Shown here piece after piece: positions 4,664 through 63,957 of a stretch of 64,000 bases of DNA. Position numbers and translations under genes: made by a program. How positions within the stretch are numbered: position 1 is the stretch's first letter; each line of letters begins with the position of its first letter. Source of the DNA: Harriotta raleighana (lineage: Eukaryota). The notes under the pieces were generated by a model. That model was not told the DNA's origin. It saw nothing but the letters and a program-made list of their open reading frames with translations, and made no database searches. Where the stretch lies: positions 944,469 through 1,008,468 of the forward strand of contig JBNZDD010013653.1 in NCBI GenBank assembly GCA_050575255.1. Direction: 5' to 3'.

Positions 4664-6959
4664 GTGGGTGTCCTCTTGTTTTTCATTAATTGTCAACTAC
4701 TATACAGTTATAGCTGGTTGGATGCCAGCAGTACTCAAACACACAATTTGGGATACCCAAACCTTGGATATTGCCAACTGCGCTGAATACTTTTCCTGGA
4801 TGATGTGTCCCTCCATGGAAAGAGTCCATATTCTATTCCAACAATCTATATCTGAAATTTCCATGTGTCTCCATGACCAAAAAATAGGTTTACGTGATCT
4901 GTTGGCATTGGGCCTAATTAAGTTGATTTACATAGTTGTTCACCGATGGCTGTCATGTATTGATTCCTTTTTAACACCCTCATGCCCTCTGCGGTATCAT
5001 GTGGTGTAACACAAAGATCAAAGATTTTAAAAGGAAGACTTCAACCCTGTGTGTTTTCAAACAGAAGAGGTGGTAAATAACAAACAGTGAGCATGCTTTC
5101 TATCTCAGGAGAGTGAATCTCAAATGAGAACATTTTTCTTCTATTGTTTGCAAGTTTTTTCTTGCTCTTGGAGCATCCATCATTTTTATAGACTGGGTAG
5201 AAGTATTTTTTTTTTTTTCCTTTTTGCACTATTCCTGGCAAGATATGGTATGCGGAGAGTACAATTCAGAGTGTTAAATATCATTTGTGACCCTCAAGAA
5301 AAGAAAATCCACTTAGTTTTACCCATCCAAATTGCTCTTTTATCAAAGGCATTGGATCTAAGAAAGACTAAAAGAAGATTATCAGACAGAACCAGAGCAT
5401 TATTAATGGTTCATATTCACAATAGTGTACATCTGTTTGATTAAAATGTGCTGCTATCATTTTACCTAGCATACAATATGTTTATCTGGTAAACTACCAC
5501 AGGAATAGTAGACAATAAATACATTGCAATCTATCACCCAAAGTATTTGGCTATTTCCTAGCTATTACATGATCCCACCCAATACCCTGGCGTTAAGGTT
5601 TGAATGAGGACAAGAGCATTTGTATTGCCTATTGGATTTATCTTTGAAATATATGTAAAGAAAGATTTGGGGTGCCTGAGCAATGGTGGCCAACCTGTGG
5701 TCAGCAGGGCTGCCAAGAATCCATATCAGGTTGGATGACAAATGCTCTGCTGCTCAGTTACTGTTCCCTTTGCACTCCACTTACTATTTATTGTTTAACC
5801 AACACTTCAGCACAAACACTTAACATTTAAGTGGAAAGCTTGGATTTACGCAAGTGGTAATCTTTACAGTTCAAACAATTCATTTGAAGCACTTCGAGAC
5901 ATCTCAACGACATGATACGGTGCTATATCAAATGCAAGGATTATTATTAGTCATTTCTCTAAACAGACATGCATCTTCTCTTAATTTTCCTTCTTTTTTA
6001 AAAAAGGGTACTAAATGTATTTAACAAAATGTATATTACACTATTAGGTCTTCAGCACATGGGCTTTATACAACTAATGCTTAGGGGTCTGTTGTCTACC
6101 TTATTGTGAACAGCAACAAACTGCAGTATCTGCAGTGTTTGCTGGTTCTCAGCCTTGCCCAGTGAACAGGTAAGTCATTGTTAGTTTTTATTTTCATTGG
6201 CCATGGTTGGATGATTCAGACAATCATGTTGTAGGGATTGTTTATGCTGCGCTTCAGTAACTGGAAAGCATTTATCCCAGGAACAGTGTGACCTCCTGCT
6301 TCAATGATTATCTAACCCACATGCTTCAGTGGGTACAGACACAGATGAGAAATCATTCTGCCTGTCTTATTTTGTATGAGTGTGTTTTTAAGAAAAATCA
6401 ATAATATTCAGTGGACCAAGAAAGATACAGTGCTATAAAAGCCCCTGATGTTTCTCCCCAAAGCAAAACAAAACAACCCCTTCTGACAATAGCATGTCAG
6501 CCTCTCCATTATTTGCGTTTGAGTAATATTATTTATATTTTGCAATCTATTCCTCAAATTGCAATATCAAATTATCACAATACCTCAGATACAACTCTAG
6601 GCAATTGGTATTGCATGCAAATGCTCCACCCAGAATGCACACTTGTTGTCCCTGGGAGTTTGGAAAAATAATTTAACAAGAAATGATAACCCATTCTGAC
6701 TGTTCCCCATTTCTACGAAAAATATTGTCAGGTAAAATGATTGTAAATGTTATGACATTGGAATTCAATGAATGCATATTTTGTTTTGTGTTTCTATAGA
6801 TTTGCAACGATAAACTCTGGTATCTTTTCCAAGTAGCCATGCCTGATAATTAATTCCCCTACTTGACTATGGATGAGTCACAGCAGAGTCAAATATGTTT
6901 TTCACATGAATTACACAATACAGTACCTATCACATATCAAACAAGAATCCAGGCTAATA

Positions 6960-7112: not shown

Positions 7113-7382
7113 AGTCAAAGAATTGAGCAAGATGTTAGAGAACTGTTGAAGTGGGTAGTGGGGGTTGAGGGAGGGTATTAGTTTGTTGGACAAATAATCG
7201 TTTTCTCTCCTAGGCATTCCTATCTTTTCATTTACACTATTTAAAAAAACCTTCTATATCTGCTTTATTACAGTTTTGATTTTACTAAGGCCCACCTGCA
7301 ACAAAAGTTACTACTTGCTATACAAATGTAATTTTGTTGTTGTTTGAATATTTCACGATTTCCTCTCCTTACAATAACAATA

Positions 7383-7700
7383 AATAAACTTTGCATTTGA
7401 TATAGCGCTTTTCACGTCTTCTAGATGTCTCAAAGCGCTTCACAGGATAAATTGTAAAGTGAATTCACTGAATATTTATGGGCGAAATGCAGCAGCCAAT
7501 TGTTCACAGCAGCAATTGTTCACAAACAGTCATGGATTGAAATGACAAATGTTATTATTGTGGTTTTTTTTGGACTGATTATTATTAGGCATGTGGAGTA
7601 AGGAAACTTGCCCAAGGTTTCGCCCTGACCTGCCTGAATTTGAACACAGGTCTCATGTTTGTAAGGCGAGTGTACTAACCACTGAGATACAGGACTCTAC
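7383..7700 (-). mobile_element. tRNA-derived SINE (SINE2-1_CM-like), full length
   Basis: Reverse complement aligns end to end with 50401-50733. Confidence 0.9.
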
Positions 7701-8744
7701 AAGATATATCACAGGTTACATAAAAGTGATTGACAATTTGTGTGTAGTACAAAACCTGGACTTTTGGGAGGTGGGTTTGGGGGGAGGGGAATTATTATTA
7801 TTTCTTGCTGTTAATTTCATGCAAGAATTAGAACACCACATTCTGCTCATCTTCTTTCATAATGCTGTCTTTTCTTTGATTCAAGAATATTACAACACCA
7901 TTTTGGAATCTCAGATGCCAAGGCCAAGGTGAGAAGTACTACGCGGGAGGCAGTTTTTGAGTCCAGCAGAAGAGGATATTGGCTTAATTTAGTCAAAACT
8001 CTTTTTGCACTCAAATGCCAATATTAGAGTTTGGGGCAGTAATCTAGTATTGCAATTCCCAGAAACTGTACACTGTGCCAAGCACGACTGAACAGTATAA
8101 AATGAGAGTAATTTCATAACATTTTCTAATGAAATGCCCGCCAATGTCATCCAACTGTGGCACTGCTCTCCTGATAATGCTGCTATTTGATGTATCATTA
8201 GTCAGGTCCCATTTTTTACATTCAATTAACCACAACTATAGAAGTCGGTACCTGCTGAATAAACCACCAGTTAGAAGAATCGTGGTGGGACTGACCAAAA
8301 TAAAGCAGCAAGTGGCTTAGGTCAAATGTGAAAATGCATAAAGTGCTTCCGGTGATAGAACTATAGTACTTATAAGTATACCTACATTCTCAGTAAAATC
8401 TCATACCCCATTGGAAGAAAATCTGAGGTCAGTAAATGCTTCTCACAATTAATATTAGAAATTTAGTCTAGATATTGCAGACATTTAGTTTTTTATGTGT
8501 GAATTTCATTCCTCCCATTTCTTGGCTCTCAAACCAAAAGCATATTCTAGTGTCCATACTTCCTGTTCCAGGTCACTGGAGCTGTCTGCTTTCTGCTTCT
8601 TCACTTTAACTGACAGCAGGTTTCTATCTCCAGTGACATTGAGGCTCATGACTCCGAATTATTTTAGTTGAATGAAGTCAATTGGAGATGCTTTACTGCA
8701 ATATTTTCTGTATCTGTGTTAAAAACAGAACTTGTGTTTTTGGA

Positions 8745-8960: not shown

Positions 8961-9264
8961 AAAGAGGGTAAACCAAGATCTGACAGCTGAAATTGACCTT
9001 CCTTAAAATCCTTCACAATACAATTTAACAACCAGCACAGAGATAGAGCAAAATGCCTTTAGGTATTTTTCCATATCAGTGCTTGCATTCTCCATTGTAA
9101 AATCCCAGAGGTTCCTAAGTACGAAACAGTTGACAGTGTAATAGTGCACAGTGCATTCCTATTCCTATGTGACAGGACATGGTTTTGAGGGGTTTATAGG
9201 CTGAGTTGACAACTTGCACTGTGCCACCACAATTGGACAGATGCTCCTTATCCTCCTGGGGGGA

Positions 9265-9766
9265 GGCATATCTTTGGGATACGTTACCTGCAAGATAACA
9301 TGCCTGACAACGGAATACTGGAATCCTCTCTAATGGTCGTGCAGTCCATTTCCTGAGCCAGACAAGTTGACAAGACTCCAAATTGATAATGAACCTGGCA
9401 GATTGGCTCATTAGCAGGGCTTGGAGGAACATATCAGTTATTGGGTCAAGGATTGTATCCAGCTCCTGATACCATACGAGCGAAACTCTAATGGATAGGC
9501 TGATTTTAATTGGATGAGCAATGGGTAACTTGCCAATATGTACAAGCATGGTTTACCTACTTAAACGTTTGTAATACCCCAGTGCACACTATTGGGTCCT
9601 CAAGCCTCTACTCTTGCCAACTTGTCTCTAAATTCTCAAGGATTAAATATGCGGAATGTATCCCTCCGCAATCCATACCAGACACATGATTAGTGGAACC
9701 ACCCATTTATGTAATCTCCAGTAGTTTGGTTTGGAGACTCAGATGGGTTCATCCAGCTGACCAAAA
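9265..9766 (+). repeat. Unclassified ancient repeat 'family X', copy C (internal deletions; may extend to ~9130)
   Basis: TGGCTCATTAGCAGGGCTTGGAGGAACATATCAGTTATTGGG aligns with 36119 TGGCTCATCAGCAGGACCTGGAAGGGCAAACCAGTCACTGGG; AAACTCTAATGGATAGGCTGATTTTAATTGGATGAGCAATGGGTAACTTGCCA aligns with ~14297-14348; ends CAGCTGACCAAAA. Confidence 0.8.
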
Positions 9767-10136
9767 TACATCCTTGCCTAGAGAGGGGAATACCAGATTT
9801 ATCCACATTCAAGTAACGTTGTCATGCTTTGGTTTGAGTAGGGGAGTCTAGGATAGAATGAATATCCAGTTATTCATCACTTGTCATTGTAAAATATTAG
9901 TCATCGATCAACTAGACAAAGGCAGCAGTCAATGCATTTAGAATAACACAATTTGCAGCTATTTCATGTGAATAGATTTTTTTTTCTGTCGTCTCTCCCA
10001 ATAATGTAAGTTGAAACCATTGATGCCATGTGTCACCCACTAAACCCTATTAGGTAGTGAGATATTGGTTGCACCTTCATCAAAAAGTACTGTAATCTAG
10101 TCTATCATATGGTTCAGTGCCAATGGAAATACACCC

Positions 10137-10742: not shown

Positions 10743-10903
10743 CAATAATCTCAGTTTTCATTTTTCACTTTTTTATTCTCATTTACATTACTGCCATTTT
10801 CATGCTCTGTGACTTTTTGCAGTTCTTCCCNAATAATCTCAGTTTTCATTTTTCACTTTTTTATTCTCATTTACATTACTGACATTTTCATGCTCTGTGA
10901 CTT
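10743..10903. repeat. ~70-bp direct duplication at a single N (10831); likely assembly artefact
   Basis: AATAATCTCAGTTTTCATTTTTCAC..CTGTGACTT occurs twice, with the second copy starting right after the N. Confidence 0.8.
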
Positions 10904-13060: not shown

Positions 13061-13974
13061 ATGAAAAATGTAGGTATTAATGGGTATAATGCAGATGAAA
13101 TATCTTTCTTTAATTTTTATAATAATATTTAATCTTACATTTGATATAACCTAATCAGATTATCAAAACAATTAAAAGTACTTCCACAGGATTCACTGTA
13201 AAATGCAGTGACTGTGTATTTGGAGGTAAACATGACAGCTAATTTGCCTACACCATTATCCACAAGCTGTCATCAGGTGACTGACAAATTTTATCTGCAG
13301 AATATTATCCAGAGAGAGAAACTCTGTTCTCTTTTTATTTTCCTGTCAGTTAAAATAATTTATGTTTGTTCACTTTATTTCTGTTGATTTTCTCATATAG
13401 TAAATAGTGTGTTTGAACAGTTTGAATGCTGAGAAGGCAATTGGAGGAACGAAATTGGAGGAGTTATTGAGCCTGACAACGCAAGGGAGTTGAATTAACA
13501 TACACTAGACATAATTGACATAATTTACTGAAGGACCTTGGGTTAATGATTATTGAGCCTAAACGCTGCGTATCAGTGACTTTTACGCTGATGTACAATC
13601 ATGTGGAAATGGCAGTCCAGGCATTAAGGGTACCTTAGGCAGTATTAATGCCTGTATGCATATTTCAGCGCAGCTTTAACACAAAATAGCTAAAATCTCC
13701 TTGAATTGAATACACAGATTGAGTCAATTACTTTGAGGGGGTGGGGGGAACATCCAACTAATTGAAGCAATACCTTGCAAGCCCTACAAGGCACACTTAA
13801 ATTGGACCTTTTTTTTGTGCTGACAGACTTCTGCCAGCATGATTCAGGGCATTGCGACTGTTTTGTATTGTACTACGGTTGGTGTCTTGTTTAGGATGGA
13901 CATTTTGGACGTGGGAGTAAGTATAAGGTATATCAAGAGGAAATAGCCTGTCTATTGCAACTGGCATAAACTGG

Positions 13975-14478
13975 AAAGTGAGATCTCCTTGGTATTCCGC
14001 GACTCCACGGTGTCATCCCTGGCAATGGAATGTCTTAATTGAGCCATCCCTCTTTGGCGGTCTTGGGAATCTGGTTGTTGAGCGAGATGGATCCACAGTA
14101 TTCAGGATTTTGCTGATCACAATATCTTGTAGATATGACTTGGTGGGACAATATTCACCTCAAGTTAACCCTATAAGTCCAAACTCTATTGGGTAGACTA
14201 GTCCTGGTTGGACAAGCGNAGGATTTTGCTGATCACAATATCTTGTAGATATGACTTGGTGGGACAATAGTCACCTCAAGTTAATCCTATAAATCCAAAC
14301 TCTATTGGGTAGATTAGTCCCGGTTGGACAAGCANTGGCAAACTTGCCAGGCATTGCTGTGAATGGCAAGCTATGAAGCTTTGCTGGTTAAACTCCAGCA
14401 GTACATGAAAACACACTTCGGGAAGCCAAAGTCTTCACTCTCAATAACCTGTGCCGAATATTTCCTGGATTAGATAAT
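13975..14478 (+). repeat. Family X, copy B (3' end lost at an L2 remnant; contains a duplication between two Ns)
   Basis: GGCAATGGAATGTCTTAATTGAGCCATCCCTCTTTGGCGGTCTTGGGAATCTGGTTGTTGA aligns with 36006 GGCAACAGAATGTCAAAATTGAATCAGCCCTCTATGTCTGTCTTGGTAGTCTGGTTCTTCA; AATGGCAAGCTATG..ACTCCAGCA aligns with 18393-18431. Confidence 0.8.
14104..14335. repeat. ~115-bp tandem duplication with single Ns at 14219 and 14335
   Basis: GGATTTTGCTGATCAC..GGTTGGACAAGC is repeated with about 6 substitutions; each copy ends at an N. Confidence 0.85.
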
Positions 14479-14479
14479 A

Positions 14480-14937
14480 GGATGCATTTGAATGCGAGGA
14501 CAAGGATATTTAATTCAATCCACTAAGGCCAGTGGAGTTGATTGAGAATGAGGTGATGGACTCATACTGTTTGGTGTGGCAGAGGACACAACTTGCAGAG
14601 TTCTGGATGATCACCACAGTCCTTGCCAGCTCTACTGGCTCCCTGCCGCAGAGTGCTTGATTTCAAGATCACACACTCACCCTACAAAATAACTTCATCC
14701 TCTAGCGTCATCTCCACATCTCTTACCTCCTCATGCCCCTATTCATCTCCCAGACACATCTCCCTTCTTCCCATTCCCTCTGCTCTAAGATCAGCCTTCG
14801 AGTTTTCAGCCACTGCACTGAACTTCTAGAACGCCCTGCCTCATTCCCTCTGTTTTTCACCCTCTTGTTAAGCACTCAGAGACGCTAACTCGGCTTGGAG
14901 TGAAGGATGCTATATAAATGCAAGATATTGTTGTTGA
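14480..14937. mobile_element. L2 LINE remnants (minus fragment ~14480-14612, plus 3' end ~14612-14937)
   Basis: TGCAGAGTTCTGGATGA (minus-strand IQNSA motif); plus strand CTACTGGCTCCC..TTGATTTCAAGATC; tail TAAGCACTCAGAGACG..GTGAAGGATGCTATATAAATGCAAG..TTGTTGTTG. Confidence 0.7.
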
Positions 14938-17330: not shown

Positions 17331-18354
17331 TATTATCCCACACTTTTGCTGTAATCTGCTTATTACCATAACCTTTCAAACCATCAAACCACTTCTTATT
17401 CATTTCAGTCAGTTTTGTAGCATAATGGAGGTCACTATATGTCAGATTTAATTTCTGGGTTACAGCAGCTGACCAGAGCTGGAGTTGAACCTTTGCAATG
17501 TTCTGTGTTGAAGCCAGACATGAATTCGCCAACCTCTTCTGTGGTTTAATCTTTAAGACCCTTTCTGGATCTTGCTTTAATCTGGAAATTGCTCGTGTCT
17601 CATTATTTCTTGCTCATTACCTCCTTGTCTGCATCCTGTTGGCATTGTGCAACCTTCCACTCCTCTCTGTGACTGCTTTGTCTTATACAACCTGAAAACT
17701 GTTCAGCACATTGCAACAGTGGTCAGATGATGTACAAAATGCACATGATGTAGAAACCTTTAGTGACAGGATTAGATTGGAAATATTATTCATTTAAACA
17801 CCCGAATTCTAACAAATGGGGCACTCCCTGTTTTAAAGATTCATTATGTCTGCTTAGGTTTTTGGCTGTTCTTTATTATTAATGTTATTGATTGTAATAA
17901 TATATGTGTTTGATATTAGATTTGTAATAGTGAACCATACCAAAATGCTTCCCAGCTAATTGCTGTCAAATGTAGTAACTGTGTATTTCAGGACATATAG
18001 AGCAGCAAATTTTGCTGCGAAAATATTACTGTTGGCTTGGTGCTGAAGAAAGCATTTTGTGATTGTTTGTGAGAAAGCAATAGTTCGCCTATAAAACACA
18101 CATTGTGTCTTGTGAAGTGCTTTGGGACACTCACAATGTGAACCGTGCTGAACTAAATGTAAGGAGTATTATTATTATTATTTTAATGGTGGTGAAGCAC
18201 AGATGCTGCTATTGCTTTCCTGAGGAGTATCCCCCAATCTCAAGACAACGGCTGGTGTATTTTAATGCAACATTGATGTTGAGAGAGTGGTGTGTAATTA
18301 TTACAATAATATTGTGAAACCAGGGATTTTGCATTAACACAAATGAAGCTTCCA

Positions 18355-18670
18355 TGACAAGCAGCGGGAAAGCTTGCTGTACAGCGATATTAATGGGAAG
18401 CTATGCGGTTTTAGCTGTTTGGACTCCAGCATTACCCCGATGCATACACTCTGGTTCCCAACTCTTGGTTCTTACCAAGTTGTGCCTAATACTTTCTGAA
18501 ATTAGGTCAAACAGGATGTTTCCCTCCAGTGTGCATTCCATGTCAACAATCTATCTCTGGGATTTCCATGTATAGATGGGATGCATGGAATTCTCAGTTT
18601 GGTTTGGACATTCATAAGCATGGTGATAGGTTTCCACATGTGTCAGACACACAGCTGACCCTCACAAAAA
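18355..18670 (+). repeat. Family X, copy D (5'-truncated, intact 3' end)
   Basis: TAAGCATGGTGATAGGTTTCCACATGTGTCAGACACACAGCTGACCC is nearly identical to the reverse complement of 53539-53587 and similar to 36432-36479; followed by ACAAAAA. Confidence 0.9.
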
Positions 18671-18754
18671 GCTTGCAAATTATTGAGGCCTCCTAAAGTT
18701 TCAGTACTGCATGGAACTGAACCATGATGTACTGCAAGGCAATTTGACAGCACT

Positions 18755-24964: not shown

Positions 24965-25475
24965 GGACAGGAGGACATTTCAAGGCGCTGGACAGTCAGT
25001 ATTTCAGACCCAAGCTGGGGTCGGGATCAGAGAGGGTGGAGGGAAAGGAGAAGAGGGGGTCGATGAGACCGTCGAAGAGGAGGGTCTTGAGCCGGGAATT
25101 GAAGAAGGCTATGGAGGGAATGATGTGGAGGGATTGTGTGATGGAATTCCAGAGGTTGGGGGCAGAGTGGTTGAAGGCTCGCCCGTTGATGGTGAGGCAG
25201 GTAGATCAGGAAACATAGAGCAGGCGGAGTCCACGGAGTGGAAGGAGTAGTTGGTACGGGGTTAGGAGGTCGCAGAGGTAAAGTGGGGCAAGGCCATGGA
25301 GGATTTTAAAGGTGAAGACCAGAATCTTGAATTTTATTCATAATGCCTTTAGAAAGAGACTAGAAAGTATTTGATCCTTTGGTTGTTGTCTTGAGAAAGG
25401 AATTATTACAATGTAATAAATCATTGTAATTGCAAAAGAGGTCACGGGCTGCAAAGTTCTGGATGATCTGCAGCC
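24965..25475 (-). mobile_element. L2 LINE 3' fragment interrupted at 25340-25430 by a templated inverted insertion
   Basis: Collinear with 45866-46376 apart from ~65-70 bp replaced by foreign sequence. Confidence 0.9.
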
Positions 25476-25777
25476 TTAACCTCCACCTGAACAGGTACTG
25501 AAGGACAACATCTCCAACAAACACAGCAAATCCGCCCAGCACTACATTGGTCACTTTATTAGCTACATGTTAGCCTAAACTGTGAGTCTCAAACTCGCAT
25601 AGGGCCTGAAACCACAACCTTCTGACACTGAATTGGGAGTGCTACCAAGTGACCTTACTGAATGACTCGATGATAATAGGTCATAAAATATGTACACTGT
25701 GTTAATTGTAATAATTCCTTTCTCAAGACAACAACCAAAGGATCAAATACTTTCTAGTCTCTTTCTAAAGGCATTAT
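25340..25777. repeat. Perfect 73-bp inverted repeat (25340-25412 / 25705-25777)
   Basis: ATAATGCCTTTAGAAAGAGACTAGAAAGTATTTGATCCTTTGGTTGTTGTCTTGAGAAAGGAATTATTACAAT is the exact reverse complement of 25705-25777. Confidence 0.95.
25476..25655 (-). mobile_element. Deu-domain SINE 5' fragment
   Basis: TTAACCTCCACCTGAACAG..CTCCAACA..CAACCTTCTGACACTG..GAGTGCTACCAAGTGA, the reverse of a tRNA head plus Deu remnant. Confidence 0.6.
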
Positions 25778-27450: not shown

Positions 27451-28195
27451 TTCGCTGATGCAAACATAATTGACAAACAGCAAGCTGTTTGCATGGGCTA
27501 TAAAGTGGATTGTTTTTCTAAATTATTGGCAGACACACTAATTATCAACTCTTGAGAGGAACTGGTAGTCAGATAGTGTTCTTTACAAGAGTTATTTCAA
27601 GCACTGTAGTGGATGTCCAGTCTATTTAAGATTATACGAGGTAGCAGCAGTAGTTCCACACAATGTTAGCAAATCCTGCTTATTTGCTTGTGTGCACCTG
27701 AGACAATTTCCTCCTCCCACTCTCTACCCCCCACCCCCCTCCCACATTGTTCCTGCCACTTCTCGGAAGCCACCCATGCACATAGCCCCAATCCCATCCT
27801 GCTTTAATGAATTTTCCTGTCCACGGATGTTTCATGGGTTGTTGAGTTGATGAATTTCACAAGAATAAAGCGGCACCTGCTGACAGGCAGCCTGTGATGT
27901 GGTTGGCTCACACAGGGCCATGTTAGGAACTGCCTGTATTTGGTGACAGATGCATGCAGGGCACCAGTTTGTTGTGTGTTCAGGCAATAAATTTGCGATG
28001 TTTCCACTCAGTCTCTTCTCCACCCGAACATGATCCTCCTTTATCTTGTGAAAAAGTGATTTGAATATGTATTTTGTCCTGGTCTGAGGAAACAATGAAC
28101 AGCACTGCCCTTTGATCATAGTTTCTCCGACACAGTATATTGTGATGATTGTAAATCCTCGTTTATTTTGATTCCAAGTTGCTCCAAAAGTTTTA

Positions 28196-28455: not shown

Positions 28456-30171
28456 AAGATTACTGGTTAACTGGTCATCATTATATTATCAATCTTCACT
28501 CAGTGACAACAACAAGACAAAAACTTAGTTATGTAACATCTTTCATGATTCAAAGTGCTTGCATGCCATTATTACTGACATTGTATAATGAAGATAAAAG
28601 TCGACTTATTTTAAAATCCAAAGTATTTGTTTTTCTTTACTGCATTGGGTGTTACTTGGATTTACTTTTTCACCAAAATATTGATACCACCTGCTAACTA
28701 AACAAACAGCCCTTTAGTTTACTTCATTACGAGTCCTTCCAATCAATGCACTCTCCATTTTAGTTGCGAAGGTGGCTGGGGATCTGTCACTGACAGAAGT
28801 GAAAATGAGCAAGCTATTAATCTCATCTAAACAGAAAATGTAGAGTTAAGTTCTTCAACCAGAAACTAAACATTCACCTACAAAATGCATCATAGTCACC
28901 AGACTTACACTAGAGTACTGTAAATCCTGTAAAGTAATTTGAGACACTATCCTGAGTGAAGGGCACTACACAAATGTAAATTCCTGTTGCTGTTGAGAAA
29001 GTCTCCTAAAATGAAAAGTGCAGTATTACATGCAAGGAGTATTTTTATTTATTTTAATCAGCTAAGAGCTGTTCAAAATCAACCAAACCCCTGAGTTTGA
29101 AAGCTTAAATTCACTGACACGTAAAGTGCTGAACTCTGTCAACTATAGAATGCTGCTATGGCCTTCTTTGTCTTCAGTCCTTGACATTCACTGCTCATCA
29201 GCTCATTGCTACTCTTGTAATATTCCTTAATTGTGGAGACAAGCGATTGAGAAGTAATAAGTGGTAAAAGGGGTAAAGGTGTAGAGTGCAAATGAGAGGG
29301 AAATGGCAAGAGTTTCGCGAGCATCGCTGGGGGAAAATCTCGGTGATAGCTTAATAGAAGTGACTCTGACCCACTCCCAGACTCCATCCCGGTATATTAT
29401 TTATTCCATCACAACAGAATACAGGAGAACCCCAGGCTATTTATTTTGTTGGGGCTGGGTTGCATTTAATAAATTATTTATTGCCCGAACACCCAACAAA
29501 CTGGTGCCCTGAATTCATCTGTCACCAATTTTTTAATTTGTAAATTTGTTCTGCGGCTTTCATATTTGGATGAAGTGTTTTTTTAAAATCGCAAACATTT
29601 GCAAGATGTGTTTTTTCAGGAGATTACCACTTGGGGTCCTCAGAGTCATGTGACTTTAGCATCCTCTCTTCCAAGGTTCCTGCAGCTTTTGCAGCTGTAA
29701 TAACTAAACATTGTGAGATGGGAATCTGATCTAAATCTTGGGTTCCATGCAGTTAATGAGTGTCCAGTCAATTCTGGCATAATCCATTTTAGATATTGGG
29801 ATCTACTTTGTAATATTTCTTGGAAGATTTCTTAATAAGAAATTATTGAACTTGAACATCAAATGTGCCGAAGAATGTATAATTGAATTTCTATGATATT
29901 ATTGAATATGTTCTTCCGCATATTTGAAGTTTTGCAAATGTGAGTTACACATTTCTTATAGAACTGTGGTGACCAACCATTTTGATCAGCCAATACAATA
30001 TATTTTCTTCATTAAATTGTTAAAAAAAAACACAAATTAAATCATTGATTGGAACAAAGAATATCAAAATACTAGCAAAGTGACTAATTAATATTTAAGC
30101 ATAATATTCCAATAATTTTATTCTGATAAGATTGAAGAAATATTACTTCTTGCAGCATTAATATTTCTCAC

Positions 30172-32085: not shown

Positions 32086-34109
32086 CATAATATTCTTCTG
32101 GTGTTTTGAACCTGAATGCTGGTTGCTGGGTTTTTCAATATGTGCTCAGTCTTGTCCACCAGCGAGAGTGCGGAGTTTATAAGAACCATTTTGAACATCT
32201 TTGAATGACAATCCTGTGGGTTTTTTTTAATAAGTAATGCTTTGCTGGGAAGCTCATGACTGACTGAATCTGGAGTGGTGATTACTTCTAGCAAATTGTC
32301 TCCGAATTCTGGTTACGCTCAACGGAGTTGTCATCTCTTGCCTAAATTTGTCTGAAAGATAGCGGTTCAGGAGACAAACTGCAATTAAAACTGCCATCCC
32401 TTGAAGTAGTGCTAACATTTCCATATCTTATTACAACACTGCAGAATTCTCTTGAATTTTCAAATTTTTACTGTTTAATAAATGCTTATCAGCCGCAATG
32501 TGTCCTGATGAATTGAAAACAGTTTGCGTTTCTCGCAATAGGCTGCCTCCAATTACCTCTCACATTACTGTCACCATCCTTTTCATTACCTTAATTACAA
32601 ATAATTGAACAGATTCTAAAATAATGAGGGACAGGCTCAGGATGGTTCAGCGGGAGATTACAAGACATCTTTCCCTGTCTCTGAATCAGGTAGACAAGTA
32701 GAAAAATGGTTTGCTTAATATTTTGCAACAGCAGATGAAAGCATGATACATTCTCAGTTCATCATTTTTAAGTAAAAATGAAAGCCTAATTCTGTGACCT
32801 GTGGATACGATTAGCATATCATTTTCTAAACACCCGAAAACTGCTCAGGAACTGATCTCATTAGCTTTTGTGTCAAAGCTTATGTCAGATATGCTACTGT
32901 GCCAGTCAGTTATACTCTATAACTAAAGAACTCTTACTATTTGAGTTTAAACCTGGATTTTGGACTTCTTCCTTTCAGTAGTCTAGTGGGTAAACACACC
33001 ACATAGTGCGGTAATAGGCACACAGGTTGCAGCCTGTTGCATACAGCTATGATGTGACATGAAGAATAGCTCACTTGGATGAGGTTCAGGGAGCCAGTTT
33101 GTGTGTCCCAACAAGTATCAATGCCTCCATGAGAGAAAGGGAGGCAGGGAAGGTGATTGGGGGGTGGGAGTGGGAAGCCTGGCATGTTTGCTGCAGGCCA
33201 GGAAAATAAAATGACAGCATCTGCCTGCCTTAGGAGACATCACCGGGGATGCCAAATGAAGTCACTCATTTGCTTCAGTACATTGGTGTTCAACGCATGA
33301 CTCTGGTGTCCGACTCTGCATGAGGATCTGACACATCACCCACTGATGCACTTTTAGTTGACTTCCATGGAGTGAAAATGACAGCCTTCCAGGAAAAGAT
33401 GGCTCCTTCTGGTTCTTGGATGACTCGAGAGGCTCTTTGTTTGATGAATGAGATCCTTTAAAACATGAAAGAAATAATGTGACACCAAATGAAAGAATGT
33501 GACACCAAATTAAAATTTGCATAATTGTATCACCAGTTATTAAAACATTAAATAATCAGATTGCACTGTGCAGTTTTCATGATCAGACAATGGATTAAAA
33601 CATAAAATTTGAATAAATTAAATGAATATAAGATAAAATAACTGAATTACATCTTTACCACTTCATCAAACCTACAGCTTGCATGCTCCTTAGCTGTAGT
33701 GTGTATAAATGGAGTGGGGTGTTGTAACATTTACAACTCATATCCTGGATATAGCCATGTAGAGAAGCTTTAACATAAGCTGTTTGACTAGATAGGGGAA
33801 ATGGAAGATATTCTGCTCTTCTCAGCAGTAACGCAATTGCAAAGTATCACATGAAGTTTGTTGGTACTTTTTGTGTTGCTATTTGTTGAGAATCCTCAGT
33901 CTCCAAATCAAGTCACTCTCATAAAATCAATTTTATCAGTTTGTTACAGTTTTGAAGAGTGGGTGGGAGAGAAGTAAATGGAATGTCTTTAACGCTGAGT
34001 TGGTTCCATGGTGATTTGCCTTTCAAATTGAATATTAGAATGAAGGTGATCCTCTGTGGCAATCTCAGGAGATCTGAGCCTGTTGGGTTAACTTCCACAT
34101 GTATGTGAA

Positions 34110-34966
34110 TCACACTCAACAGCCCTTCTCCTCCTCCAGCTATGACCCCCAGCCTTCTGAGGTTCTATCAACTTGTTAAAGGTCAACAAGATGTTACCAT
34201 ACTCTTTGGCTCCTGTCGACATCTTCTGCAGTTCCTGCAGTTCCAACCTCCTCAACCTACCCAATCTATCCTTAAAATTCTTTGAACCCATGCATAGGTG
34301 TCAGGTTCGATCCCCAGTTTTCCTTCCTGCCCACATCCAGTCTCCGACTTGGACTGCTTTCCTCCAACTCCCATCACATTGTCCGTCTCTGACAATACCT
34401 CCCTTCCCAAGCTGACAAAACTCTTGTCCATGCCTTTGTCACCCCTTGGCTGGACTACACAAACTCCCTCCTCATCAGTCTCCCTTCCTCCACTATTCAC
34501 ACAAACTCTGCCACCCACATTCTCACCCGCACTAAATTCTGCAGCCCGATTACCCCAGTTCTAGACACATTCCATTGGCTTCCTGTCACAGATTGACTTC
34601 AAGATTCTAACTCTAGTATTATGCTTTGGCTAGCTTTCCGACCTGCTAGTTTTCCGACCTCCTCGCTCCTCACAGCACTACCAGCTGCCTATGCTCTACT
34701 GACTCCATCCTCCTCCTTGAACCTCAAATCCTACGCTCCATCATTGGGGGCCATGCCTTTAGACACTATGCCTCAAAGCTACGGAACTCCCTCTCTCAAT
34801 CCCTTTGCTGTGCCCCCTCTTTCAGGTTGTGCCTAAAGACCTTCGTCTTTGAACATGCCTACATGTCACTTTCCCCTCCCGCTGGCTTGGCATCAGGCTC
34901 CACCATTGTTAAGCGCTCTGCGACATCACCCAGAGTGGAGGATGCTATATAAATTCAAGTTGTTGA
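34110..34966 (+). mobile_element. Old L2 LINE, fragmented, with 3' end
   Basis: AAATTCTGCAGCCCG, TCCATTGGCTTCCTGTC..GATTGACTTCAAGATTCT, GGAACTCCCTCTCTC, tail TTAAGCGCTCTG..GATGCTATATAAATTCAAGTTGTTG. The 5' part (34110-34520) is only compositionally L2-like. Confidence 0.7.
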
Positions 34967-35944
34967 CTGAAAGGCTCTGTTGATGAAGGACCAGTCAACC
35001 AGGTTCAGTTGGAGCATTTGGAGAAGATTAATCATAGGAGTTGGGATTCTTCCTACTTGATTCCAGTTAATGCTACAAGCAGATGCCCTAATAGGTGAAG
35101 TAATATTAATAATAATTAAATGTAATGAGAATCCATTCATTTGATATAGTACTTTATCACTTTGACCAAACATTTCACTGGAAACATTTCACAGGATTTA
35201 CTGTAAATTCTAATCAATGTGTATTTGTAAGCAAATGTGGCAGCCAATATATGACCAGAAATATCTCACTCACAGTTATTAAATGAATTACCAATTTTTA
35301 TCAGGTGGAGTGGTTATGAGGAAGCAATGTGCCTTTAAAATAATGAGAATCTTAAATGAAGTAGTAGTAAGCAGACTATTTGACTTGGACCAAACGAAAG
35401 TTCTGGAGAGGATAAATTTAAAATTAAAAAGTCTCAATGGGATTAGAGATTAGAGGATTTTTCTTCTTGCACTGTTGCTGCTCTTGTCAACTAACTCAAT
35501 TTAACTTCAAAAAGGATCTGGAAAAATATCCCTTGGATATTTTTATAGAAGGATATAACGTTCAAAATTGCAGTACTACTAATCACTTTATTGTTTGGAC
35601 ACCATTGGACACCAATTAAGGATACCTTTGAAATAGAGCACCTTTGTGGCTTTAAGTTTTATTTTAATAAATTTTTTCCCATGATAAAAATAATTCTTGC
35701 ATTTGCTGCACACCTTTCACTCAGGGAGATGTCTCAGAGCTTTTCACAGTATATCAAATACAAGGATTATTTACTCTAAAGTGTAGTGACTGTGCATGCA
35801 TATCCTATAAATATAAATATCCTATAAACAGCTGTGAAATAAATGACTAATTTTATCTGGGCAATTATTGGTCAGGACACTGGGAAAAACTTTTTTTTTG
35901 ACATCATTAATGTTCACCTGAAGAGGCAGTGACTATGGAGGTAA

Positions 35945-36488
35945 ACAGGGTCTCTTTGGAGCTGATTTGGCTCCAAGGAGATTAGAGGAGCTGAACTAGC
36001 TCCAAGGCAACAGAATGTCAAAATTGAATCAGCCCTCTATGTCTGTCTTGGTAGTCTGGTTCTTCAAACAGGCAGGTCTACAGTTTTTCAGGTCCTGTTG
36101 ATGACAGCACAGCTAGCCTGGCTCATCAGCAGGACCTGGAAGGGCAAACCAGTCACTGGGGATAGGAAGTGATCGCACTCAGCTCCTGTTAACCTTGCAA
36201 GCCAAAACCCCGATAGGTAGGGTGGTCTTAATTGAATCAGTAGTTTTCCACAGTGTAGAGCAAACTCTGGGGTACCCAAGCCTTGGCTCTTGGCAACCAG
36301 TTCCGAATACTTTCCGGAATTAAGTAAATAGTCCCTCCAGAGAGAGTGCGCATTCCATTCCAACAATCTATCTTTGGGATAGATGTGTGAAGGTGGGATA
36401 CATAAAAATCTCAACTTGGTTTGGATACTCTTAAGCATGGTGATGAGTTTCTGCTTGAGTTAGACACCGGACTGACCCCTCAAAAAAA
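35945..36488 (+). repeat. Family X, copy A (longest copy with an intact 3' end)
   Basis: Aligns with copies B, C, D and E along its length; 16-bp stem at 36089-36104/36123-36138; ends GTTAGACACCGGACTGACCCCTCAAAAAAA. Confidence 0.85.
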
Positions 36489-37725
36489 GGTTAGCATTTC
36501 ATTTTCACCATAATGCAGTATCTCCAAAAATGTAACATCACTCACCAGATTATTAAGAGTATCAGCCTGGACTGCAAAAAAATTTACACTTGCATAACTG
36601 TTTTTACATTGGGAGGACATCCCAAAGCACTTGGCAAATGTGAGTTCAAAGTACTGACACGGGAAATTGAAACGATAACCTTCTGCTTTAAAGATAAGAG
36701 TGCCACCAACTGAGCCAGACTACATCTAACACCACTATTTTAAAATTCATATTTAGCATCAGACAAAGAAGATAAATCACAGTCTCCATGGCGCGATGAA
36801 AGATTTTCTGATCCCACTCTGGATTTCAGGGTTTTTTAACCTGACATTAAATACCATGGCCAGAGTTTTCATTTAATGCTGAGCTATAGTTTGGTGGTTT
36901 TATACAATTGATTTGTCAGCCCCCTAAAGCTATTGGACACCAACATTTCTTTTTGGATAAAGAATTCCCGTTGGTTCATTTGATCTTCAGGATATACAGC
37001 CATCCACAATCCCATCCTGATAACTTGTTCCAGCCATTCATTTTCTTCTGTGGGTTTGGGTGTGCATTTATTGTCCACCTCTGCGTCTATTAAGTGCTCT
37101 GAGGCATTCTGGATACTATCTAATAATAATATTATAATATTCCTTGCATTTGATATAGCTCCATATTGCATTACCAAGATGTGTTAAAACACTTCACAAG
37201 ATACACTATAAAGTGAAGTGACTGTGTGTTTTGTGGGCAAAATATAAATATATAATTTGTTAAACTTGTTTCTGCCGATAGTATCAACTAGTTTTACAGA
37301 ACTCCATTTTGAAACCGTATCCTTATGCTGTTAGAGGGAGTGACTCCACTTGCAGAGTTAGTAAATAAAGCAACCTAATAGTAACCCAAGGTGTCAGGCC
37401 TGATTTACACCAGTCATACAGGTCCCCAACACCACTGCCCCTCAAATGATTATATCAAGAACTTTGATTCTTGAGTTTTTCCAGGCTTGATCCTTTCTCT
37501 TCTGTGTTGTATAATTGCATTGAATTCTGTTTTTTAAAATGTTTTGTGTCCCTTACAACATACATTCTCCTGGAAATTCAGGGCTCAGTCATTTTTTTCT
37601 TACTTAATGGTTTAATAGGAGTTCAACTGTCCCACTCACAAGAACAAGTGTTATAAAACTATTCAGTTTATCGCGTACAGACACAGTCATTACACTTTAC
37701 AGTAAATTGTGTAGAGCCTTTCAAA

Positions 37726-37970
37726 TATTTCAATGATGTTATCAGGTACAAAATCAAATGCAAAGATTATTTTTATTATCAATATACAAAATAAACCCTT
37801 TTTTTTAATCTACACATGAAAGTCAATACTACTTAACCTTATATTTTNATATTTCAATGATGTTATCAGGTACAAAATCAAATGCAAAGATTATTTTTCT
37901 TATCAATATACAAAATAAACCCTGTTTTTTTAATCTACACATGAAAGTCAATACTACTTAACCTTATATT
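37726..37970. repeat. ~120-bp direct duplication at a single N (37848); likely assembly artefact
   Basis: ATATTTCAATGATGTTATCAGG..CCTTATATT occurs twice with about 2 differences. Confidence 0.85.
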
Positions 37971-42999: not shown

Positions 43000-43282
43000 G
43001 ACCAAGTTATTAATTTTGTACTGAATGAAATAGCATTAGCAACCATGGGTTAAATGTATGTTCCCTTCTTTTTAATTTATTCTCCTTTTAAACGAGTGCA
43101 GGAGCCGATTTTATGCTTTTTTTGTGAGGCACCAATAAATATACTGTATNGACCAAGTTATTAATTTTGTACTGAATGAAATAGCATTAGCAACCATGGG
43201 TTAAATGTATGTTCCCTTCTTTTTAATTTATTCTCCTTTTAAACGAGTGCAGGAGCCGATTTTATGCAATAAATATACTGTA
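43000..43282. repeat. ~150-bp direct duplication at a single N (43150), second copy ~18 bp shorter; likely two haplotypes
   Basis: GACCAAGTTATTAATTTTG..AATAAATATACTGTAT occurs twice. Confidence 0.85.
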
Positions 43283-44790: not shown

Positions 44791-44832
44791 AAAATGCTTC
44801 ACAGAATATATTGTAAAGTGAATTTGACAGTA

Positions 44833-45356
44833 CAGTAAAAGCCTGTTTATCCGGCCCCGGGGGACCTGGCCAATGCCGGTTAAACGGCTTGCCGGTAAAA
44901 CGGTCGGATCTGACGCCGAAAACCCAACACAAAAAAAAACTTATTTTAAGCACATACCATATTACTAATGGATTAAATAATAACAGATAATAACAGAATA
45001 TTGTATTGGTACTTTATTGTAAATGTTGTTCACTGTACCATATAAATAATAGACTAAATACAGTAATAACAGATACTGTAATAACAGAATATTGTATTGC
45101 TCCTTTATTATTTATACTTAATTTCTGCAATGGCGGATGCCACGGGAGGAAAAAAAATAACAGTGCGACTTTAAGGCTCTACCATCGGCAAGCGAAAATA
45201 CCTGTACAGTACTCTCGTGTAACAATTGATTCATTAAATGCGCCACCGCTATTGTGGCGGATAACATCTAGTTAATCGGATGGGGAGTTTTTTTTTGATG
45301 TACCAGTTATATGGAAGTTCCGGTTGATCGTGTTGTGGATAAACGGGCTATTACTG
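44833..45356 (+). mobile_element. Tc1/mariner (pogo/Tigger-type) MITE, complete, 524 bp
   Basis: TIRs CAGTAAAAGCCTGTTTATCC / GGATAAACGGGCTATTACTG, TA at 44831-32 and 45357-58, AT-rich non-coding core; second copy at 58287. Confidence 0.93.
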
Positions 45357-45449
45357 TATATTTGTGGGCGAAATGCAGCAGCCAATTGTGTACAGTAGTG
45401 TCCCACAGCAAGGAAACTTCCCCAAGGTTTTGTGCTGACCTGCCGGATA

Positions 45450-45819: not shown

Positions 45820-46493
45820 AACAACAACAACAACAAAATTACACTTATAGAGCGCGTTTCACGTCAGGAGGACGTCCCAAGGCGCTGGACAGATTGGTTC
45901 AGGACCCGAGCAAGGGAAAATGTTCAGGGCGAGGGAGGGGAAGGGTGGGAGCAAGGAGGGGGTAGAGACTCGAGAGGGGAGTTGAAGGCACGGTCGAAGA
46001 GAAAGGTCTTGAGACCGGCCTTGAAAGAGGAAAGGGAGGGAGCGAGGCGAAGGCACTGGGGGATGGAGTTCCAGAGCCTGGGGGCTGAGCGGCTGAAAGC
46101 CTGGCCGCCGATGGTAGGATGGTTAGGGCAAGGGCTGTGGAGCAGACCAGTGCCAGAGGAACGGAGGGTACGGGGAGGTAGATAGGGGGATAGTAGGTCG
46201 GAGAGGTAGGAGGGAGCAAGGCCGTGAATGGCCTTGTAGGTGAGGATGAGGATCTTGAATTCGATCCTCTGGGGGATGGGGAGCCAGTGGAGACGGGAGA
46301 GGGTGGGAGTGATGTGGTCTCGAAGCCTGGTGCGGGAGAGTACACGAGCTGCAGAGTTCTGGATGACCTGCAGCTTGTGGATGGAGGAGCCGGGAAGGCC
46401 TACAAGGAGAGAGTTCCCATAGTCCAGCCTTGAGGTGATGAAGGCGTGGACCAGTATCTCAGCAGCATGAGGGGTGAGGCAGTGTCGTAACCT
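45820..46493 (-). mobile_element. Young 5'-truncated L2 LINE; uninterrupted ORF2 C-terminal frame, 3' UTR and (TTG)n tail
   Basis: ORF 45924-46520: [86 protein letters not shown]; CpGs retained; candidate TSD GGGTAA at 45816-21 and 46494-99. Confidence 0.96.
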
Positions 46494-48564
46494 GGGTAAG
46501 GTAAGAATATAAATGTTCAATGGAATGAATTGAGTTCATTCATGTGGTGTTGCACAGCAAAATGCTAAGATTCACCACTGATTACCTATTATTAGCGTCA
46601 TTATTCTTATGATCATCCTTATTATTGGTTATTTGAAAGAGATTGGATGAACTTTGAAGGTACCATCGTTTCGTTTACCATAATAGTTTAGTTCAGTTTT
46701 TGGCATTTTGCAGAGGAAAGGTATATGCAGAGAAAGCACATTGGAAGGCATTGGGAAACGCAGGTACCTGAGATTAGGATAGATGGCTTAATGCATTGAC
46801 ACCAATGCAATGAATCGAATGGCCTCCTTTGAGTTGTGAATTTCTATTTTTTTTTGCAAACTAAAGCAACAAATATCTTTAATACCATTTTTGAGTTCCC
46901 CCTCCCCCATTGTTTTTAGAAGAATTCTAAACTTACCATTTCTTCATGTAATGGAGTGTATTTGTTTCAATTTGGGGGAGGGGTGAATGGGTGATAGGCT
47001 GGAACGTCTGTTCCAGATGCTGAGGTCAGTCTCTGATGCTTCATTTCAGAGGCAACCTCGAAAGCCGGAGAGATCACTTCTCTCAGCAGCCTGTTAATGA
47101 TCACAGATGAAGTGAGTTACTGCGGTCTCACTCTGATCCTCAGCGGGCACAATGCATGAAACAAAGCTGTCCCTAATTTATCAACCTCAACTCAAGAGTC
47201 TTGCACTGAATTTGTAAGGATGCCGGTGTTACCTGTCCAGGGTGAGAGGTTCAAGTTAGAACAATATTGCTAGAACAATATTATGTGGAAATATCACTAA
47301 TGCTCTTCCCAGGCCATGGATCTCACTGCTGTTGTGAACAGAATGGAAACTTTACCCCCCACACCCCCAGCCCACCCCCACACCACTCCACCCGTGGCCA
47401 CTATTTTCCACCCAATGACTCCTCCTTCTTACACTTTCTCAAGTATTCTCGTCCAAGCCCGCATTTGAGTTCAGAGAGCAATTTAAGTTCCGTTTGCATC
47501 CTTCCAGTCCATCCAACACCCCATCTCCAGTTAGAGAATGAATCACCCATTAACTCACGTTGAACCATGGAACTTACAATGTTCAGAAGTTTTGAGCGGG
47601 TTTCACATTGTGTGCTCTGGTATGGAAACGTTAGTGCTTAAAAAGCAAAATGCCAACCACATACTCTAGCAGCAAATTTGGGCTAGAGAGACAAAACAAA
47701 GCACACCCCATAATAGTTTTGTGTGTTGAATGGGCTCATGTTTCTCCAGCTACTGAATCCAGAGAAAACTTTGAGAAAGGAAAATGGTACTTGAGAATGA
47801 TTCGAGAATGATTCGAGATTCCCCCTGAATCATTGTGGCAAATTTGTTGGTGAACTCACAATTTAATTCATAATTAGTGCGGCAACTTCTGGTTTGCATA
47901 TCTTACATGTCATTGCCAGTAGATATTTAGCAACAAGAGCAATTCAACCCTTGACATTTCTAATATCTCATTAGAAATCCATTGTTCTATTATTAATATA
48001 AACACTTTGGATTGCCAATTTCACAGCTGGACCCTGTGAAAAATACAGTACGTGTGGCCTGGTTAGGATACCAGCTGCTTCTTCGTAGTTTATTCATGGT
48101 TTACTTTGTTTCATGTTTTCATGTCATTTTGTGGTTAACTTTCCTTTAAAACAAAAGTGAACATTGCATCTATCAACAAGTAGGTGCTTCTGTAATCTGT
48201 CTCTCGTTACATTGTTCCCATTATGTACGTGCCATGTACCTCTCTCGCGAATGTCAGCACACACTGTGGCAGGCACCGATAGGGCTGCCTATGCATGATT
48301 GCAACAAAGTGGGTTTGCATCTCGCAAGCAAGCGATTTTTCCGAGATGTGAAGCAGTTTGGCTGGAGCAGAGTTTGACCACTTCCAACCTATAAACACTT
48401 AGAATGACGTTGCACAGAAACAAGTCATTCATCCCAATTTGTCCGGGTCAATGTTACACCTCCACCCTTCCTGTTATCCTCACTTGTACCCTATATTCCC
48501 TTCTTCATCATGAATGCAGCACCTTTCTTTTAAATCCTTTCTTTTCCCTCCAATCCCAAATTCT

Positions 48565-62985: not shown

Positions 62986-63654
62986 ATTTGTAAGTAAGAA
63001 AGGAAGAGAGAATCAAAAGCTTCAGACTGGTATGTGGTATCAATAATGGTGGAAAACTATTGATTACTCTGTATTTTTGCCTCCCTTACTAATAGGCTGA
63101 GTGGCCATCACCAGGAGTGATATGCATGTGTGGGAGGTAAAGTGGGGGAATTCTCCTAGGATCAGATTTAATGAGCCACTGCACATTTTTTATCACACTT
63201 TCCTGTCTGTATATTGATGTAATCACAAAATCGAAAATGGCTCACTGGCAAAAAGGCTACACAAGTGACACCTCAAAGGACCTTGAAATATAAAGCCAGA
63301 CTCCTCCACAAAATCCAATGTACGTCTCGCCAACTGATGCAAATTTGGCTCTTTAAAGTCACAGAAACAAGATGTTGTAGAGTTTATGACTGCAAACTGA
63401 GGAATGTAGTGAGCAAGTTTGCTTCTAGCAAGGTTGGCAGTTGAGTTTGCCATGGGTCTTGCCACATTGGCAGCAACATTCCCAGGACTGGAATCAGAAT
63501 TCCCGCTTTCTTTTCTTCTGATTTTATTACTTCAGTACTATATGATGTCAGTACAGAGGAACGCCTTACAAAATGCACTTTACTCTGTCCAGAAAAGTTA
63601 AGCTCTTGAGGAGGAACAAAAGGGGAAATAATGAGAATCAAATAAGACTCATTG

Positions 63655-63957
63655 TGGAGTACTATAGCTTAGTGATTAGAGTATTCACCTTACAAGCAAG
63701 AGACCTGGGTTTAATTCCCACTAGAGCAAAATGTTGGGCAAGTTTCCTTACTCTACATGCCTGATGATGCCTCAAGAAAAAACCCAATAATAAATTGGTC
63801 ACTTCAATCCCTGAATGTTTGTGGGACACTGCTGTGGACAATTGGCTTCCACATTTTGCCCACAAATGTTCAGTCAATTCATTTTACAGTATATTCTGTG
63901 AAGCACTTTGAGACATTTAGAAGACTTGAAAAGCGATATATCAAATGCAAGGATTAT
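63655..63957 (+). mobile_element. tRNA-derived SINE (SINE2-1_CM-like), full length
   Basis: Collinear with the 50401 copy. Confidence 0.9.

Follow-up and report, generated by a model that had tools for sequence, protein, structure and literature searches.

A decayed family of A-tailed, non-coding repeats in Harriotta raleighana, probably a non-autonomous non-LTR retroposon of defined length

Seven copies of a repeat, here called family X, were identified in the window, that is, in the whole 64-kb stretch of Harriotta raleighana DNA that was analysed, and they make up a genuine, dispersed and decayed repeat family. With a probability of about 0.72, family X represents an old, dead, non-autonomous non-LTR retroposon with a defined length of approximately 575–600 nt, and it probably adds a new, or hitherto unclassified, representative to a retroposon type that is already known. 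A previous sequence-only reading had proposed a LINE-mobilised, A-tailed, non-coding and abundant element with hairpins on the sense strand, and this part of the proposal was sustained. However, the branch of that reading that regarded the element as a long LINE 3′ UTR with variable truncation is not favoured, since four copies begin at one head, without upstream homology or a reverse transcriptase. No description of family X was found in the literature by text searches, which are blind to sequence, and Dfam or Repbase may already list it. Nothing observed points to a host function for the family.

The five copies listed earlier (A–E) were mutually alignable as had been claimed, with all 10 pairs outscoring the best of 200 shuffles and identities ranging from 64.4 to 78.6%. 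These five copies are real, but the list was short by two, given that a profile search of the 64-kb window with nhmmer additionally recovered copies F and G. Taken together, the seven copies total 2,476 nt, corresponding to 3.9% of the window, which is repeat-dense and has a G+C content of 39%. The copies and their main features are the following:

Copy A: 35938–36488, plus strand, near full length, delimited by pairwise alignment and nhmmer
Copy A, 5′ head hairpin: 35949–35983, plus strand, 15 bp, z −5.0
Copy A, large hairpin (stem 1): 36084–36143, plus strand, z −4.8
Copy A, internal deletion: about 55–60 nt near 36240, plus strand, from the family alignment
Best-kept long-range helix: 36269–36282 / 36418–36431, plus strand, with two double changes
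3′ terminal hairpin (5 bp), CTGACC and A tail: 36459–36488, plus strand, the A tail at 36482–36488
Copy B: 13962–14488, plus strand, head present, 3′ third absent
Copy C: 9257–9766, plus strand, both ends kept, internal deletions toward the 3′ end
Copy C, candidate decayed target-site duplication (TSD): 9245–9264 / 9771–9789, 14/19 matching
Copy D: 18356–18671, plus strand, 5′-truncated
Copy D, candidate TSD: 18338–18354 / 18663–18677, 14/15 aligned, with a 2-nt gap
Copy E: 53530–53789, minus strand, 5′-truncated, adjoining the tail of another SINE-type repeat
Copy F: 4700–4872, plus strand, internal fragment without either end
Copy G, 5′ piece: 33967–34092, plus strand, carrying the shared head, E 0.022 before it joined the model
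Copy G, second piece: 34971–35110, plus strand, E 7e-5

The second piece of copy G resumes about 10 model positions past the first, the two being separated by an L2 fragment (~34100–34965). In copy B, the segment 14104–14217 is repeated as 14220–14333 with 95.6% identity and a single N is found at 14219 and at 14335; this 114-nt duplication is an assembly artefact at a gap. Outside the window, a 20-nt motif of the family was found in two metagenome loci, which are alike in the motif alone, and in one viral locus, while its 3′-end motif gave no locus in a genome contig collection and two viral loci. The two metagenome and three viral loci were rejected as relatives, none of the five scoring with the model of the 3′ half.

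The genome-wide abundance of the family, which had been suspected from the window, was verified in the contigs of four public runs out of 15, aligned to 35600–36800 at an 80% likeness threshold; the other 11 runs, including a fish-gut run, were left out as evidence. Thousands of matching contigs were observed in 4/4 runs (3300, 8393, 12365 and 16387 aligned contigs per run, some of which match flanking repeats). The summed depth over the element reached 2–3 × 10^5 in X4, X10 and X12, whereas in X4 and X10 the one orthologous contig had a depth of 25–50; summed depth does not equal copy number, and it was interpreted only as "thousands of copies". Regarding age, the copies of family X are 62–79% identical to one another, compared with a mean of 82% (21 pairs) for the young tRNA SINE of the window. 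Copy A sits between the halves of an older SINE copy, and copy G was itself broken by the L2 insertion. Moreover, both junctions of copy A are spanned by contigs of 93–95% identity in X4 and X10, which come from two other organisms, and the insertion is therefore older than the split of these organisms from the host species. Insertions of this kind, held in common by several species, could be used as phylogenetic markers. Unclassified repeats are reported to account for 10.8% in the whale shark (PMC8455134), and, if no library classifies family X, it would represent a sizeable share of the repeats listed as "unclassified" in sharks. In the head of copy A, a tandem duplication of about 30 nt affects the core of the head hairpin (35957–36007), where the orthologous contigs show 37 (X4) and 27 (X10) gap letters, and this duplication may be recent.

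The common 3′ end noticed previously was recovered, with copies A, C, D and E all finishing in CTGACC followed by an A-rich run, and the same end with its A tail was present in the loose-end consensus after 36451 and 36454 in 4/4 runs (118–436 contigs each). The 5′ ends, in turn, had been described as variable, which holds for the 5′-truncated copies D and E, but copies A, B, C and G have one homologous head. Among the head pairs, significant similarity was verified for A–G (z 6.9), B–C (z 5.9) and C–G (z 4.9), with B–G at z 2.4, and the alignments of A–B and A–C were not significant. None of the six pairs of upstream flanks of these four head-bearing copies aligned, and neither a reverse transcriptase nor any other Pfam domain was detected in the nine sense frames of the 1.5-kb stretches that precede B, C and G. 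A shared head combined with unrelated upstream flanks argues for a defined unit of about 590 nt, and not merely for a randomly truncated LINE tail; the summed length of the unit is ~575–600 nt. In agreement with the earlier reading, no terminal inverted repeats were found at the ends of family X, and terminal direct repeats were likewise not found there.

It could be argued that an autonomous LINE with a long 3′ UTR contributed nothing but this UTR to the unit, its reverse transcription often halting at the head hairpin. A strong hairpin does occur at the 5′ boundary, and poly(A)-tailed LINEs of the Zenon group are reported in elasmobranchs (PMC13343379), but none of the four heads extends into common upstream sequence or into a reverse transcriptase, and four independent stops within ~20 nt would be required, which renders this explanation improbable. 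As to the distribution of truncation, the head is retained in four of the seven copies and the tail also in four of seven, so that truncation in the window is symmetric, without 3′ bias; contig depth as a measure of truncation is confounded by the divergence of copy A itself.

Evidence on the mode of insertion came from the junctions. A crude search for exact TSDs returned nothing telling, and a junction-anchored test revealed TSD-like direct repeats beside both junctions in 4/4 tail-bearing copies. The corresponding p values were 0.18 for A, 0.048 for C, 0.005 for D and 0.23 for E, and 0.0017 for the sum, this last value being optimistic since the junctions of A and C were set by eye after the candidates had been seen. 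Copy D alone was significant by itself at 0.01, and swapped flanks used as a control scored in 2/12 pairings. These candidate decayed TSDs of 5–20 nt favour a LINE-type insertion, as support rather than as proof. The tetranucleotide TAAA precedes three of the four heads, as would equally be expected if the element had entered an A/T run and duplicated nothing. Since AATAAA is absent from five of the six copies checked, the A tail need not derive from Pol II polyadenylation.

Two other classes of element were weighed against these junctions. The defined ends, and a 3′ end readable as ...CA, would suit a solo LTR or a cut-and-paste MITE, but terminal inverted or direct repeats are lacking and an A run follows in 4/4 copies and in the contig consensus, so that this classification is hardly credible. 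When the minus strand is read, family X resembles a non-autonomous rolling-circle element, that is, a HINE/DINE-1-like Helentron or a Helitron: T runs are found at both ends, TAAA stands before three of the four heads, and the AG run of variable length, the symmetric truncation and the terminal hairpin are like features described in PMC4067079. The T-rich flanks, terminal palindrome and microsatellite described for HINE/DINE-1 Helentrons (PMC4067079, PMC11417382) have their counterparts here. However, HINEs are defined in PMC4067079 by subTIRs of 12–15 bp, which family X lacks, given that for 3/3 tails the best 12-mer inverted matches equalled those obtained with shuffled heads. In addition, TSD-like repeats are present in family X, whereas HINEs, as described in the same source, make none, and the 5′ TC and 3′ CTRR ends that serve as Helitron criteria (PMC11417382) are absent from the junctions, as read by eye. 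A rolling-circle origin is consequently regarded as highly doubtful.

The non-coding nature of the retroposon was corroborated by several observations. As stated earlier, no protein motif was present, with Pfam matches in 0/30 frames of the five copies, and codon periodicity was not detected in the copies of family X, in an analysis whose 5′ tally did not include D and F. In the majority letters of the contigs, each of the three sense frames is interrupted by a stop inside a stretch of ~23 nt, near 36305–36326, from which it follows that the master was non-coding there. Two sense frames of copy D gave no protein relatives. A minus-strand ORF of 123 aa in copy A produced three HMMER matches, which were rejected as weak sums over unrelated repetitive proteins, and neither this ORF nor one of 145 aa in copy C had a Pfam match.

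The absence of a tRNA, also claimed before, was confirmed, and no Rfam family reached its gathering score in family X. For the four heads, no match to tRNA, 5S or 7SL was obtained in Rfam at E values up to 10, although very old heads may evade detection by such tests, and no Rfam match to telomerase RNA or to a ribozyme was found in the family. None of the four heads has a recognisable box B, one of them contains a box A-like motif free of mismatches, and the heads did not match those of the SINEs of the window. The hairpin at 36084–36141 in copy A resembles the Rfam mir-24 model with 25.8 bits (gathering score 50), E 0.0017 locally and 0.18 window-wide, and the match is close along the 3′ arm except for a 2-nt gap; copy C gave no mir-24 match, and the resemblance is probably due to chance. 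A CTGATGA motif inspected by eye as a possible hammerhead core was discarded, as GAAA is missing downstream.

These searches bear directly on the possibility that the same target-primed reverse transcription (TPRT) mechanism acted on the transcript of a cellular ncRNA gene with an external promoter and without an Rfam model, making family X a SINE with an undescribed head. The defined 5′ end, the chain of imperfect hairpins and the failure to find LINE homology would be expected from such a source, and runs of four or more T are never shared between copies, in keeping with transcription by Pol III. On the other hand, Rfam returned nothing above chance except for the sub-threshold mir-24 match, the heads show the paucity of box A and box B motifs described above, covariation is weak and no source gene was seen. 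This origin is therefore considered possible but rather unlikely. A bolder version, in which cartilaginous fishes would have an undescribed RNA gene of ~590 nt with several hairpins, and family X would be its retroposed fossil, amplified to a few percent of shark DNA, with compensatory changes among subfamilies revealing the fold and possibly with a ribozyme-like 5′ end, is speculative and judged clearly unlikely. If the source did prove to be a cellular RNA, that RNA would be new, and so would the type of SINE head.

The structural claims of the previous reading were examined copy by copy. Compared with shuffles, the fold of copy A has a z of −3.1, and its 5′ half scores −3.5 in the sense and −2.5 in the antisense orientation. 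No other copy falls below −2 in the sense-strand fold, and random windows reach −4.1. The majority sequence yields z −1.7 in sense and −0.5 in antisense, this sequence being rough due to the misplacement of the 5′ part of D in its alignment. In the head, a homologue of the copy A hairpin is partly retained in C, with z −2.3, whereas in B and G it has decayed. Further downstream, stem 1 is a real hairpin in A, but the change from G-C to A-T in copy C, which had been presented as compensatory, needs a shifted register, and in the MAFFT register no double change occurs in 17 pairs. Copy B, in which the outer stem was said to be kept, pairs at 12 of 17 positions, but the 5′ half of this copy shows no exceptional stability (z +0.3). 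The G-U in stem 1 of A stems from the C-to-T decay of a C-G pair, most contigs carrying C at 36098. The 5′ arm of this stem is also more perfect in A than in most genomic copies, as judged from the loose-end consensus before 36095. Upstream of it, a 10-mer at 36064–36073 can pair, in the contig majority, with 36116–36125 on the side of stem 1 that faces the loop, with 8/10 pairs in C and 6/10 in A, and this pairing could represent an alternative fold or a pseudoknot.

Stem 2 pairs at 10/10 positions in D and E, and the terminal hairpin (stem 4) at 5/5 in A, D and E, both as predicted. The long-range stem 3 is complete as proposed, but in A and E only, and it overlaps a better-kept helix, 36269–36282/36418–36431, that the earlier account did not mention. 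In A and C all 12 positions of this helix pair, compared with 11/12 in E and 9/12 in D, and it surrounds the AG run of variable length near 36338. Considering six rows and 39 pairs of the 3′ half, 86% of the cells pair; double changes occur in three of the 39 pairs, a number matched by 22/500 shuffles, and the covariation score was matched by 4/500 shuffles, a level that 5–25% of unconstrained alignments also attain. An unbiased scan for helices common to at least three copies, evaluated by column shuffles, gave p 0.024 for the sense and 0.78 for the antisense strand of the 3′ half, and no significant shared helices in the 5′ half. A folding preference for the A-tailed strand has statistical support. 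The hairpins recurring across copies stood, but the covariation evidence is weak with three to six decayed rows. Because dead copies would decay neutrally, covariation should be visible only between source subfamilies.

The structure of the heads also raised the question of an HDV-like self-cleaving ribozyme that would set the 5′ end, a situation found in R2, RTE and Ingi elements. A descriptor comprising P1, P2, P3, L3, P1.1 and J4/2 CRRA was built from features given in PMC6326823, and copy B was the only full match to its relaxed version in the window, located at the 5′ end of the element. The probability of such a match by chance was 0.02 per window with the relaxed descriptor and 0.11 with the untuned core, and ribozymes without P4 are reported (PMC6326823; bioRxiv 2023.06.13.544163). 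However, the descriptor had been loosened after B was seen, by allowing a zero linker and a 3-nt J4/2, and it fails to recognise the heads of A, C and G, leaving one head in four. Furthermore, a plain hairpin accounts for the conserved bases, and the HDV-type models of Rfam give B no score. A ribozyme at the head is accordingly deemed very unlikely.

Returning to the retroposon of defined length, its most likely source would be the joined untranslated ends of an internally deleted LINE (a SIDE or bipartite element using the LINE's own promoter), for which we hold a modest preference over a cellular RNA gene, since elements of this kind are described with exactly such anatomy (PMC5786205, PMC6740152). 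In this scenario, a master copy would have been transcribed as a single RNA of ~590 nt folding into a chain of hairpins, the 3′ hairpin and A tail of which would be bound in trans by a LINE ORF2 protein. Target-primed reverse transcription would then copy the RNA into nicked DNA, giving rise to some insertions of full length, such as A and C, and to others that are 5′-truncated, such as D and E, all of which would afterwards decay neutrally. A 3′ stem-loop is reported as typical of stringent LINE/SINE ends (PMC3747384).

Bipartite or internally deleted LINEs such as RIME, NARTc, the Vingi-1_EE derivatives and RTE-N2_Lch are, as characterised in PMC5786205, non-coding and a few hundred nt long like family X, with a defined 5′ end, a LINE-type 3′ tail and no tRNA, 5S or 7SL head. 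According to the same source, each of these elements can be assigned to a parent LINE that matches it at both ends, a counterpart that was not found for family X. Persaeus, a CR1-Zenon SIDE of Lepidoptera, also shares with family X a poly(A) end, the lack of a Pol III promoter as given in its description and a very high copy number (PMC6740152), and it measures 270–390 nt versus ~590 nt for family X (PMC6740152). SacSINE1 and HE1 are likewise abundant non-autonomous retroposons of cartilaginous fishes (PMC5499810; PMC3747384), but their tRNA heads and L2/CR1 tails, as reported there, set them apart from family X.

As to the partner LINE, no other repeat of the window has the head or the tail of family X. 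Zenon is a candidate, since it is described as the sole poly(A)-tailed LINE of the CR1 group and is present in elasmobranchs (PMC13343379). The shark Zenon and 16 Squalus consensus rows of CR1, L2 and Zenon appeared unrelated to family X by eye over their first 400 nt, and motif searches within the first 400 nt of shark CR1-group consensus sequences likewise gave no match. If a partner were identified, family X would provide a vertebrate example among the few LINE clades that make internally deleted derivatives.

Several other features were observed in the window. A SINE that combines a tRNA head with an L2-like tail is abundant (58950–59251, 63652–63957, 50394–50735, 7372–7707 and others); it is interleaved with family X and forms a younger layer of ~82% identity and an older one of 67–73%; based on its architecture, we take it to be SacSINE1-like. 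Open reverse transcriptase fragments were found for an L2 element on the minus strand (45924–46535), the two best matches of which are in Callorhinchus milii (71% and 68%), and for a presumably CR1-like element on the plus strand (56696–57136). An element of ~530 nt is present in two copies with 76% identity (44824–45358 and 58278–58784), with inverted ends that start with CAGTA and with TA flanks, and is presumably Tc1/mariner-like. Near-identical duplicates of 70–120 nt flank a single N at 10744–10903, 14104–14335, 37725–37970 and 43000–43267, and they look like scaffolding artefacts. A perfect 73-bp inverted repeat (25340–25412 / 25705–25777) surrounds ~290 nt of an older repeat and possibly results from a recent inversion or from an assembly fold-back. 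Lastly, a 53-bp inverted repeat with 92% identity (27940–27992 / 29476–29528), the arms of which lie 1.5 kb apart, could correspond to the ends of a DNA transposon.
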